Below are positions 12,578 through 56,115 of a stretch of DNA of 64,000 bases, in pieces. The translations under genes and the position numbers were made by a program. Under the pieces are notes generated by a model. It worked only from the letters and a program-made list of their open reading frames with translations, searched no databases and was not told the DNA's origin. Origin of the DNA: Octopus vulgaris (lineage: Eukaryota). The stretch is from assembly GCA_951406725.2 (NCBI GenBank), contig OX597826.1:25172001-25236000 (forward strand), given 5' to 3'. Numbering within the stretch: the first letter of the stretch is position 1; each line of letters begins with the position of its first letter.

Positions 12578-12780
12578 TATTCTGTTAAAATATTACATCG
12601 AGTGAGTTTCATCTCGTGACAACCGTTTGTCAGTTTCTTTCTCCTTTTTTATGATTATTTCTACTTAAGACGCTTGCTTGTGATAGCACCATTAAGATAA
12701 TTTGCTTTGTCGAGACAGTATGTAACTATTTATTGATTACATTTATCAGCAAGGAATCATGGCGTGAATTAAGAGAAATA

Positions 12781-14702
<1,922 letters not shown>

Positions 14703-14760
14703 ATATATAGAGGGCATTATTATACATACAGGCCACACGCTACGAGGGACATTAGTCATT

Positions 14761-14811
<51 letters not shown>

Positions 14812-23590: not shown

Positions 23591-26402
23591 GTATATATTT
23601 TTGTGGATGGTGTTGAAATGGAGACACAAGATGGCATAGAGTAAAGAAAACTCTATAGTTATGTCAAGAGCATGATAACCTCTTTAGTGCTAGTGCATGC
23701 ATATACAGCTGCGTGCGTGCGCACATACATGCGAGTGCTGTCCAAATCTCTGACCAATCACATACGGCTAGCTGGCATTCAGTTGGCGTATCAAGTTTTG
23801 AGCATTTTGATTGGGTTTTGGAAAGAAAATTCACAAAAGAGTCACTTCTATTGATTTTTTAATGGCTTTGCAGGGTGACTGGAGAAATGTAAAGATGTGC
23901 ACAGCCACCCTTGGACGGTTTTGATTAACCATAGAAAGTGCGATCTCTCTAACTAAAAAATTGTGGATTTGTATAAAGGACACACACACAGACACACATT
24001 TTGCCATTTATATATATAGAGATGACATGAAAAAGCAATGTGCCCACTGCACTCTGTAAAGTGGTTGGTCTTAGGAAGGTCATCCAGCCAGCGAAGGTGT
24101 GGTTTCTCAAAGCATGCAGGTAAACAGTAACACTGAAAAAAAAGACTCATTCTGTGACAACCTGTCCAACCCATGCCAGCAAGAAACGTGCAAGTCTGGA
24201 GAACTCAGAACCATGTTAACCCATCTATCTCTTTTCTAATCATTTTGGTACCAACGTGCCTAACATACAATATGTGCCATTTTGAAGTGTCTATATTTAA
24301 AATGAAACCTTTCATAGTTTGATCAAAGGAACATTTCGTTCAGTTATGTTCCAAGTATCATCTTGATAATGGACAGGATAGTTAGTTTACTTAATCCTTC
24401 ACAGACAATGAATCTCATTATAAATTGTCTTCGCCATCACCATTTAAAGTCTGTGTTCCATGCTTGCTGACATGCGTAAATGGTTTGGCAATATCTAATG
24501 CATCTGAAGACTGCATCATATTCCATATCTGCTTTGGCATGTTATCTACAACTGGTTGCCCTTCCAAATGCCAACCACTTTATAGTATGTACTGGGTACC
24601 TTTTTCTTTTTTCCATGGCACCAACATTAGTGGGGTCATTATGCCACTTGCAAGACAAAGATCCTACTTGACTGACAGCGACACACAATAGACAGGGATG
24701 CAACTTTATGCTAGGAGATGAGGGTTTAAAATATTAAAGAAGGGGTAGGAATAGTTGTATGTACATTTTGCTTCCTGTAGCATTTTAGAAAAGGGTGAAG
24801 ACAATGGAGCGTGATTAGATGAAAATGTAGCTCTATTTTATAAGGTGGGGACAACTGTGAAGTCAAGAGACCACTTAGTGGTTCCTTCATTGGCAAGAGA
24901 AAAAGTAGGTGTATGTACTGAGTAGATATGTAAGTGACCTGCATCTAGCTAGTTCTAAAGAGTAGAATAGGCACAGTGGTGACAGAAGTGCTGGACAAGA
25001 CACAACCTGTCTGCAAGTCAGAGGGTCTTTATCAGTTAGCAATCAGCTAGGACATATGTTTGTACTTGTAGTAGCAGCAATGTCATGTAAGGTATATCAG
25101 CAATACGCCAGTTATGTGGGTCAAAATTTGAGCTTTGTACAATGTTAGCAACTGTTTTAGGTTTTAATATATTTTGGGGTCCCTGAGGAGGTGACTTAGC
25201 TTTTAGAAGGCAGTTTTTTTTTTTTTGAAATGTTAAAGCTCCATAGTTTACCATGAGAGAATTTGCTTTATCAAATATTTACCATCATCATCATACACAC
25301 ACACATGCAATCACACAAACTAAGTCAAGTATTTAGTTTAAGCTGTTCTGTCAACTATCAACCTTCACTTCCTGTAGCATTTTATATAATAGTCTAAAGG
25401 AAAGGATTTGTGGTGACTAGAAGATGGGATGTTGTGTACTTTATGCCTCATCAAAAGGCATTACTGATGGATGTAAAGTGTTGTTAATAGGTAATAAATA
25501 ATTCAAAGTAATTAATAGATTTGATGTTTTTAACAAATTACAACACAGCTGTTGGTGATACACAGACACACACAAATACTCACACGTTTGTGTGGTTGTG
25601 AAATTCACTTTGCAACCACTAGTTTTCGGTTTTACCACAATGCATGAAACCAGAAGTGTCTCTCTTCTACCACAGCACCCAGCTGACTAATACCTTGTGA
25701 GCAAAATTTGGTACACGGACCCTTTTGTATGTATATGTGTGAGTGAGTATACGTGTATATAAAACACCTTTACTAGGTAAAGTGTCTAAACTTGATCAGT
25801 GGATTTTTCCTCATCTGACAGCTTCTCAGCTTAATCAAGGAGTTGCCCTCTCCTTGTTATGTAGGAGTAGAATATCTACTGAATCTTTCCATCACAAATA
25901 ATGAAAAGTGGGTCCTCTATAACTGTATCCAACGAAAATGGCAATAGTTAGTACCTAATGAAAATGGAAAATCAATCTCCAAACAGGGTACACCTGAAAA
26001 AAGTTATGCCTTGTGAAGTATGTCTATCATGAGAAGTTAAACCAAACTGAAACAGTTTTATGGGGTGAAGTACTGTCAGCAGCTGAAAGCATTGCACAAA
26101 AATTTGCAAGAAAAGTGCCCCTCATTGGTCAGACATTAAGAGGTGTTGCTCTAACATGATAATGCAAGACCACCTAATGCCCAAGTCACTCAGGAAAAGA
26201 TTATGGCAATAAATGTAGAAGTTTTGTCTCATCCTCCTTATTCTCTTAACCTTAGTCCATCTGACAGTCATTTTTTCAGGTCACAGCAATATTATGCAGA
26301 AGGAAAAGAGCTCATAAATTGTGAAAGAGTGTTTCTGTGGTTCAGATCCTGAACAATTTTATACCTGAGGGATAAGCAATTTACCAAATAAATGGGATTA
26401 TA

Positions 26403-26727
26403 GTTCTATATTTAAGAGATGAGGAAAATTTACATTCGATGGATATTTGTCCTCATTTGTTGTTAATACAACCTTTCGGCCGATATACCCTCCAGCATTC
26501 ATCAGGTGCCTTGGGGAAATTTCAAACTTAAGTTCTCATTCCTAAGGCTTTTTTTTTTAATGTTATTATCATTATTATTATTTAGGTCACTGCCGGGAAT
26601 CAAACTCGGAATCTTGAGGTTAGTAGCCTGCGCTCTTAACCACTATGCACACGGGCATATAGCATAGTGGTTAAGAGTGTGGGCTACTAACCGAGAGGTT
26701 CCGAGTTCAATTCCAGGCAGTAACCTG

Positions 26728-26758
<31 letters not shown>

Positions 26759-26905
26759 GCAACAGCAACAACAACAACAACAACAACATGAGAACCCAGG
26801 TTTGAAATTTCCCAATGACACCTGATGAAGGCTGGAGGGTATATCATCCGAAACGTGTTAACAACAAACAAGATGAGGACAAATATCCATCAAATGTAAA
26901 TAATG
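26403..26905. mobile_element. Fold-back retroelement: back-to-back tRNA-like heads, each followed by a hammerhead motif; 14-bp TSD
   Basis: Inverted arms ~26428-26648 and ~26662-26901; TSD taaatgggattata at 26389-26402 and 26906-26919; A-box 26660-26670, B-box 26705-26714; CTGATGA...GAAA at 26822-26853 (+) and 26505-26474 (-). Confidence 0.85.
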
Positions 26906-26929
26906 TAAATGGGATTATATTATCAATAA

Positions 26930-55390: not shown

Positions 55391-55944
55391 TTGGGTTGTC
55401 CGGAAAGTTTGTGCCGATTTATAGTAGTTTACCTTTCAACTTATTCTAGAACATGGTTGAGTCCATAAAATAGGATTTGACTACACCTCCATTTAGAGCA
55501 CAGTTTAAGCTATCGTTTCGTGGAAGAAGATCTATGTTCCTAAAACCTGTGTTAATTCTGTAACCCTTTAAAATGGAAGATAAGAAAGTTCCTTTTCGGC
55601 ACTTGATGCTTTGGGAACCAGACAAAAATTGCTGCAGCTCAGCTGGGATGTGTTACCCCGCTCTCCATATTCACTAGATATTGCACCTTTGGATTTCCAC
55701 TTATTCAGGTCTCTGCAGAATAGTCTTAATGGTAAAAATTTCAATTCCTTGGATAACGTAAAAAGATACCGTGATGAATTCTTTGTCAATGAAACCACCT
55801 CAATTCTGGGAAGAGGGTATTTTCAAGTTAAAGGAAAGATGGAGATGCATTGTGCAAGAAAATGGTTCATATTTTGTAACGGCAAGTATTTATTGACCTT
55901 TTTCTTTCTTTTAAAAATCGGCGCAAACTTTCCGGACAACCCAA
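55391..55944 (+). mobile_element. Internally deleted mariner element (mellifera-like)
   Basis: TA TSD; ~30-bp TIR ttgggttgtccggaaagtttg.gccgattt; N-terminus MEDKKVPFRHLML joined directly to C-terminus WDVLPRSPYSLDIAPLDFHLFRSLQNSL. Confidence 0.93.
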
Positions 55945-56115
55945 TATAAGAACATATTTAGCAATGGGATTGGAGATATGCTGTTTCTAGATGAGAGATG
56001 AAAATGGTCAGGATTGCAATGTCACATGACTATGGCCATAGGTCTGATGGATCAAGGCTTACCTGGGGCTAAGCAATAATAACAGCAACACACATACATA
56101 AAGAAACACCCACAG

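Follow-up and report, generated by a model that had tools for sequence, protein, structure and literature searches.

Fold-back insertion in the Octopus vulgaris genome: probably a head-to-head pair of Penelope terminal repeats with a putative tRNA-derived start

We examined a stretch of 64,000 nucleotides of the Octopus vulgaris genome (assembly GCA_951406725.2, contig OX597826.1, positions 25,172,001–25,236,000 of the forward strand; hereafter the window), which at 26403–26905 carries an insertion made of two inverted arms, each with a tRNA-like head, a spacer and a hammerhead ribozyme motif. Each arm is almost certainly the pseudo-long terminal repeat (pLTR) of an autonomous Penelope element of the Poseidon type. 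The insertion is probably a head-to-head pair of such pLTRs that arose in a single event, with two rounds of reverse transcription that both ran to the 5′ end of an RNA, the start of which likely lay at a tRNA-derived promoter for RNA polymerase III (Pol III). An earlier note, made from the letters of the window, had read the same DNA as a separate non-autonomous short interspersed nuclear element (SINE) combined with a retrozyme, which two divergent Pol III promoters transcribe, self-cleavage trims and Penelope proteins move. We find that the fold-back and the hammerhead are ordinary for Penelope; the promoter is the remaining surprise.

The insertion is bracketed by an exact 14-bp target-site duplication (TSD), TAAATGGGATTATA, at 26389–26402 and 26906–26919, and its arms align as three inverted pairs: 26428–26456/26873–26901 (97% identity), 26460–26539/26788–26867 (83%) and 26554–26648/26662–26756 (77%). 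BLAST of the insertion against itself gave 73% over 494 nt (E 3e-77). The insertion of ~500 bp with a 14-bp TSD and two inverted arms is thus as the earlier note had described it. The arms are unequal, with an extension of ~26 nt (26403–26428) on the left that is absent from the right. An A-box, a CTACTAA loop and a B-box had been assigned to both arms; the set is complete on the right, while the left head lacks its first bases and has GTTTGATTC at its B-box. The sequence TTTT is absent between head and ribozyme on both arms, and both hammerheads are mutated (Table 1), again as noted before. The window copy is dead.

We searched the whole genome (2.8 Gb, 227 contigs) for relatives. The exact 39-nt hammerhead core occurred 1268 times and its reversed control not at all, so the motif does not occur by chance. 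For the architecture we took 90 of the 1268 core places, chosen on the hammerhead alone and all on contig C1 (the set omits two pair partners and the last eight listed places); 30 further loci were picked by the endonuclease protein, independently of the hammerhead, and 30 on the start of the head. Long copies of the family are 83–89% alike. Among viral contigs there were 45 pattern matches and no relative.

Upstream of the head, several core-picked loci had a frame carrying the motif VYSIPCSCGRLYKGET. Among the 30 endonuclease-picked loci the head lay downstream of the endonuclease in 25, directly behind the stop codon of the GIY-YIG frame, and a hammerhead/tail piece was present downstream in 28. 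One locus (L151) has a reverse transcriptase (RT; Pfam RVT_1, E 2.4e-10) followed by the endonuclease (EN) motif, head and tail; another (L401) is a whole partial tandem of EN end, head, tail, open reading frame (ORF), head and tail, across which residues 18 to 846 of the homolog P0001 (847 aa, 55% identical) align. The frame of the arm, MRTQV..PDEGWR..PKR, matches the N-terminus of this protein. The extension seen on the left arm, which we call the tail, continues into the ORF in L401 and also in L117 and L165, two independent loci that are 84% alike over 312 nt. The unit reads tRNA-like head, (AAY)n, ATG, RT, GIY-YIG endonuclease, short 3′ untranslated region (UTR) and next head, with the hammerhead placed within ORF codons 10–25. 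Homologs are mostly RT proteins of 660–900 aa, including an Anolis protein of 836 aa at 35% identity; they bear PF00078/PF28514/PF26215, and one also PF01541. The GIY-YIG label comes from the motif given above and from the homologs, as Pfam made no such call on the family fragments; of the EN fragments scanned, neither of two short ones gave a useful result, nor did two of the three that were longer. All copies seen were broken, and a fully open full-length ORF was not found among the family copies examined. An RT with a C-terminal GIY-YIG in one ORF, and a partial-tandem pLTR that takes in the first ORF codons (L401, L117, L165), are Penelope/Poseidon features, and the domain order, the length and the 35% identity to the Anolis protein suggest a place in Poseidon.

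The autonomous Penelope element sharing the arm, for which the earlier note had proposed a search, was therefore found (e.g. L401, L151). The arm is contiguous with its RT–EN ORF, in line with the proposed mobilisation by a Penelope RT and GIY-YIG endonuclease. The idea of a separate non-autonomous SINE-retrozyme fell, because the autonomous element itself has head, spacer and hammerhead as its pLTR, between the endonuclease stop codon and the next ORF start. Two other classes do not fit. SINE2 needs a non-coding unit distinct from its partner, and here the whole arm, head included, belongs to the autonomous element; a non-LTR retrozyme needs tandem same-strand units that each carry a hammerhead and release monomers or circles, and the window copy is head to head with two broken ribozymes. 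The 30 head-picked loci, 26 of which had a downstream tail piece, gave no evidence of a distinct SINE family that combines this head with a different tail. Two further Penelope-like groups were seen in passing. One is young (L391–L393, e.g. G000:C22:44547500-44554500), with intact frames of ~1311 aa and at least 145 close copies; it is 21% identical to P0001 and had no hammerhead match in the 700 nt downstream. The other (L396–L400) has open frames of 750–890 aa with proline-rich flanks and is about 30% identical to P0001.

We then compared the two arms across the family. An inverted piece was present upstream in 60 of the 90 loci, and flank strings of at least 8 nt were shared in 28 of 48 head-to-head pairs versus 7 of 339 random flank pairs; the family TSDs measure about 8–15 bp. 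Inverted copies, often with TSD-like flanks, for which the earlier note had asked, are thus the norm in the family. In these 48 pairs both ends could be classed (a further 8, in which one end was truncated, were not counted), and the tail was on exactly one arm in 45 (26 versus 19 by side), on neither in two and on both in one. Near-symmetric fold-back copies recur (L001, L005, L009, L058, L084); arm lengths differ continuously from locus to locus, and either arm or both can reach the endonuclease. A palindromic master with two divergent promoters does not agree with such variable arm lengths. In addition, an inverted 5′-truncated copy with a tail at one end is a published hallmark of Penelope (PMC8557442; papers are cited here and below from portions of their text). 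Inverted pLTRs, TSDs of 8–10 bp and junction palindromes have been described as well (PMC3846280), as have opposite-strand hammerhead pairs 100–700 bp apart (PMC4209133).

The copies end at two sites, about 45–60 and 85 nt downstream of the predicted ribozyme cut, indicating that self-cleavage does not set the copy ends, contrary to what had been proposed. The two sites match the two internal sites, bounding the tail, at which the RT of the Anolis element PAc begins; in vitro, PAc cuts and extends both target strands, and its activity is independent of hammerhead cleavage (PMC11167929). The arms of a pair share the allele at hammerhead position 7 (Fisher p 1e-4 for 77 scored pairs, many of them picked on T), and among loci unpicked on that allele 19 of 24 T/A pairs agreed, which suggests that both arms come from one source lineage. 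A 3-nt deletion was not shared between paired arms (p 0.35). In our reading the fold-back pair consists of two cDNAs that a single source lineage supplied. Snap-back copying as the sole route to full fold-backs is disfavoured, since the deletion is unshared between the arms and the arms have two different ends.

The family hammerhead is, as the earlier note had held, predicted to be a minimal type I ribozyme of the Penelope kind, and its majority state is intact. We surveyed 96 distinct copies from 109 loci that were not picked on the motif, and in these the functional letter was the majority at every core and stem column; 26 of the 96 pass for core plus stems. The motif has an extra base after position 9, G10.1–C11.1 and a palindromic stem III, which are features of this type (PMC4209133). 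Leaving aside changes of CpG type and the right arm's 3-nt deletion, which recurs in 14 of the 96 copies (about 15%), the sole common second allele is at the free position 7 (T 58, A 33); this change is also a conservative codon change and hence no proof of selection on the ribozyme. Rfam, run on the window stretch and six loci, gave miRNA-type hairpin noise only, with no hammerhead or tRNA match. The hammerhead scan that the earlier note had suggested was thus negative in Rfam; core and stem pairing are intact in the majority state of the family. A separate locus (L020, 848–2667; G000:C2:2734207-2736026) holds nine head-to-tail units of ~215 nt, each (AAT)n–hammerhead–tail without a tRNA head, a retrozyme-like tandem derived from the family pLTR.

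The head, at the 5′ end of the pLTR, is by its sequence tRNA-derived and has A and B boxes. Seven heads aligned to host tRNA genes far above shuffles (best z 5.8–8.8 per head), and tRNA-Arg(TCG) was the top match in six of the seven, in a comparison that covered only seven isotypes. Across 48 copies the majority sequence contains both boxes, judged by their usual consensus: A-box TGGCGTAGTGG and B-box GTTCGATTC. Neither the window nor 15 family loci yielded a tRNA gene in ARAGORN. The 5′ ends of the arms pile up at the head start. We scored 78 arm hits, 50 of which extend to +12; among these 50, 41 stop between −11 and +12 and none at −102 to −12, and the remaining nine run into the ORF. Measured on another reference, 35 of 44 arm ends lay within 9 nt of the head start. 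Nine of the 30 head-picked loci had native upstream sequence and 21 did not, many of them with fold-backs of 3–21 nt. The arms stop 13–14 nt upstream of the A-box, which is about where a type 2 Pol III promoter is expected to start transcription. A 12-nt palindrome has its edge at the same point. The hairpin that native upstream sequence forms with the head is a weak one, at −8.6 to −9.8 kcal/mol (z −1.1 to −1.3). On balance we favour an RNA start site at the head. Both boxes together were found behind the ORF in none of 80 other Penelope loci, a weak comparison as many of these have little flank. Three loci (L046, L054, L057, around 1450–1500) have family arms that start directly in the terminal (AAT)n of young copies of a long interspersed nuclear element (LINE), presumably R4/Dong-like, which ends CTG(AAT)n, as the head does. 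In L328/L338 the last ~17 nt of the 3′ UTR, just ahead of the head, resemble a decayed inverted copy of the head start, and the unit junction looks as if it had itself been born of a fold-back.

Runs of four T (T4), the Pol III terminator, are scarce in the family. When 46 long copies were mapped on a single natural copy over 2.68 kb, no T4 site was common to more than 14% of them; C4 had 8 shared sites in the same copies. Thirty family loci held 20 T4 runs versus 93.5 expected from base content and 51.5 under an order-2 Markov null (L401, 2 versus 6.8), while 80 other Penelope loci (from metagenomes, some redundant) held 691 versus 475.6. The pooled T4 ratio of the family, 0.21, was under that of 77 of the 80 control loci, and none of the 66 control loci with an expectation of at least 2.5 had zero T4. 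Within the octopus genome, ten intact ORFs that belong to other families of retroelements had 3–9 T4 runs, near expectation for most, with two below it (5 versus 9.4). The 30 loci found with P0002 all proved to be of the Penelope family studied here, and a more distant group reached via P0045 was used as the in-genome control. We regard the T4 loss as suggestive of Pol III terminator avoidance.

How could such a pair arise? We propose that the endonuclease would nick both target strands about 14 nt apart and that RT would then start internally at two sites just inside the ORF, giving one arm with the tail and one without (both steps modelled on PMC11167929). Copying that begins in the 5′ pLTR would, after about 250 nt, run out at the RNA 5′ end and leave a solo pLTR. 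The two cDNA ends may then join via a short palindrome, or one may snap back on itself. The RNA would start about 13–14 nt upstream of the A-box. The step of which we are least sure is that Pol III may read the full 2.7-kb unit, which would account for the lack of a shared TTTT. As to the origin, a tRNA-derived element ending in CTG(AAT)n may have taken a Penelope insertion in its (AAT)n, which would place the ORF behind the promoter; PAc favours ATT targets (PMC11167929). In its fullest form the proposal is that an autonomous, coding Penelope swapped its RNA polymerase II (Pol II) promoter for a captured tRNA promoter, purged T4 from its 2.7-kb coding strand, is transcribed by Pol III from end to end and is translated without a cap. 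We put this forward tentatively, and give it somewhat less than an even chance. If it were true, solo and fold-back pLTRs would be SINE-like by-products, and the SINE and its autonomous partner would be one element.

The strongest alternative, which we nevertheless consider unlikely, is an ordinary Pol II Poseidon in which a remnant of a tRNA-derived SINE is a UTR passenger, the pile-up of arm ends is made by the palindrome and the T4 loss is due to chance or codon bias. Penelopes in general have inverted junctions and a palindrome at the 5′ end of the pLTR (PMC3846280), many short arms here carry the 3–21-nt fold-backs, and the native upstream sequence does form a hairpin with the head. A number of observations that weigh against our favoured explanation belong here too. 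Inversions centred on the pLTR 5′ palindrome have been read in ordinary Penelopes as self-priming, perhaps on an antisense template (PMC3846280), and the known Penelope promoters, that of D. virilis Penelope among them, resemble internal ones of LINE type with initiator and downstream promoter elements (Inr/DPE; PMC2377424). In our data the palindrome ends at the proposed start base, so that both causes predict the same junctions; a tRNA fold is no longer recognised in the head (Rfam, ARAGORN); and divergence within pairs (9.0%) is barely under that between pairs (9.4%). GGGG is also unshared in the 46 long copies, with about 2.4 expected. Three of the 80 control loci are T4-free, although these are short (expectation 2.2 or less). 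Synonymous-codon shuffling, a weak null, made no single ORF significant (p 0.06–0.92), and L203 has 3 T4 runs versus 2.6 under this shuffling. Moreover, the T4 copies are all of one lineage and hence a single evolutionary observation. No Pol III transcript was seen: on one locus (L210), reads of three RNA runs were equal on both strands, 76–81% of them continued into unlike flanks, their depth tracked the DNA profile, and there was no pile-up of RNA starts at the head or the cut site. The three runs carry the same species label, their libraries may be unstranded and the family is decayed; the reads are passive read-through of old copies and give no support for a Pol III transcript. What speaks against the passenger is that the native hairpin is weak and yet 41 of 50 arms stop there, that a type 2 promoter would begin transcription at this very point, and that the pooled T4 ratio lies below that of 77 of 80 control loci.

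A mixed case is less probable still. Here the head promoter would make short Pol III RNAs only, mobilised in trans by Penelope, and the coding mRNA would be made by Pol II. Short copies starting at the head do outnumber long ones, a short RNA would contain the internal RT start region, which is sufficient according to PMC11167929, and the Schistosoma element Sm-alpha pairs Pol III with a hammerhead (PMC6765202). However, the copies share no terminator, either behind the tail or elsewhere in the unit, the hammerhead would cut upstream of both RT start sites, and the T4 loss deep in RT and EN is left unexplained. The self-contained palindromic SINE-retrozyme with two divergent Pol III promoters and self-cleavage trimming is largely refuted and very improbable: near-symmetric copies recur and the majority hammerhead is intact, but arm lengths are continuous with either arm running into the endonuclease, the ends lie off the cut site, the tail is on one arm only and on either side, and the sequence is the autonomous element's own pLTR.

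Finally, we compared the head-to-head pLTR pair and its source element with known systems. The Penelope/Poseidon elements (D. virilis Penelope, Anolis PAc, Adineta Pen2a) share with it a single ORF of about 840 aa with RT and C-terminal GIY-YIG, a pLTR in which a minimal type I hammerhead and the beginning of the ORF lie, and partial tandems (PMC8557442, PMC3846280, PMC4209133, PMC11167929). They also share the inverted 5′-truncated copy, the tail at one end, which in this class is 30–40 bp long, TSDs of 8–15 bp and the pLTR 5′ palindrome. The octopus pLTR differs in that it opens with a tRNA-derived head with A and B boxes and not with Inr/DPE or a TATA-type promoter (PMC2377424, PMC3846280), and its coding strand is without shared T4. 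Schistosoma Sm-alpha and Sj-alpha are likewise tRNA-derived and apparently transcribed by Pol III, with a hammerhead following (PMC2770079, PMC6765202); in contrast, they are non-coding and have canonical hammerheads that free monomers, whereas the octopus sequence is the terminal repeat of a coding element. The TRIMp3 elements (Cassandra, Helenus, Ajax) have a Pol III promoter derived from a small RNA in their terminal repeat (PMC10886601), but they are non-autonomous LTR elements of 311–1263 bp, and their autonomous partners are argued to need Pol II (same source), while the octopus repeat is part of an autonomous Penelope. The non-LTR retrozymes of metazoans share the origin from a Penelope pLTR and the type I hammerhead (bioRxiv 10.64898/2026.07.22.740005); unlike these, the window element is inverted and has no monomer between two same-strand ribozymes. 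The consulted portion of this preprint does not mention tRNA, and those of PMC13282606 and its supplement do not mention hammerheads.

The earlier note knew of no described family that joins a tRNA head, a hammerhead and a fold-back; the first two together are known from Sm-alpha. In our full-text searches of the literature a Penelope with a tRNA-derived pLTR did not come up; that search lay outside Repbase and Dfam, where the family may be catalogued. Pol III promoters are held to be confined to short non-coding parasites, and autonomous retrotransposons to Pol II or read-through (PMC10886601). A coding Penelope with a tRNA promoter, if real, would break this rule, and one would have to ask by what route its RNA is translated; this may have to do with the still unexplained function of a hammerhead within the first codons of the ORF. 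Should Pol III play no part, the family is still a large natural data set on how Penelope inversions form, and such copies are easily mis-annotated as tRNA-SINEs or miniature inverted-repeat transposable elements.

Table 1. Features of the insertion and its target site (positions in the window)
Feature	Position	Strand	Remark
Insertion target, decayed Tc1/mariner-type transposase remnant, outside the element	25900..26402	+	Frames HDNARPP, VLSHPPYSLNLSPSDSHFF, LPNKW
Left TSD, 14 bp	26389..26402		Exact direct repeat of 26906–26919
Penelope tail extension (ORF N-terminal coding sequence), left arm only	26403..26428	-	Missing from right arm
Left arm, Penelope ORF start, broken	26429..26539	-	ATG at 26539; translation MRT*V*NFPKAPDECWRVYRPK... 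matches P0001 N-terminus
Left minimal type I hammerhead, defective	26465..26510	-	Stem II mismatches, C15.2>G
Left 5′ UTR plus decayed (AAT)n spacer	26540..26582	-	
Left tRNA-like head, 5′-clipped, B-box altered	26583..26649	-	Best host tRNA alignment tRNA-Arg(TCG), z 8.8
Inversion junction	26650..26658		Remnant of family palindrome TGCCC-AC-GGGCA at pLTR 5′ end
Right tRNA-like head, 5′ part of pLTR	26653..26727	+	Candidate Pol III internal promoter
Right A-box	26660..26670	+	
Right CTACTAA loop	26684..26690	+	
Right B-box	26705..26713	+	GTTCAATTC
Right (AAC)n spacer	26728..26787	+	5′ UTR portion beside ATG deleted
Right arm, Penelope ORF start	26788..26905	+	ATG at 26788; translation MRTQV*NFPMTPDEGWRVYHPKRVNNKQDEDKYPSNVNN; stops at proximal end site, tail-less
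Right minimal type I hammerhead, defective	26817..26859	+	3-nt deletion takes out cleavage triplet
Right TSD	26906..26919		Exact copy of left TSD

The target of the insertion is a transposase remnant that we take to be of mariner type from its motifs, and a second decayed remnant of this type lies in the window at about 55584–55950. The long dsRNA that the earlier note had placed in a host pre-mRNA found no support at this locus. The window also has long (AT)-rich microsatellite tracts at 1258–2600 and 12700–14800 (GC about 20–25%). Elsewhere in the genome we observed a very young LINE family (L394–L395, L361–L370) with many copies that are 99–100% identical and have intact frames of 1227 aa. 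Another locus (L176, 138–2854) has seven tRNA-Cys-like genes in 3 kb, two of them with altered anticodons.
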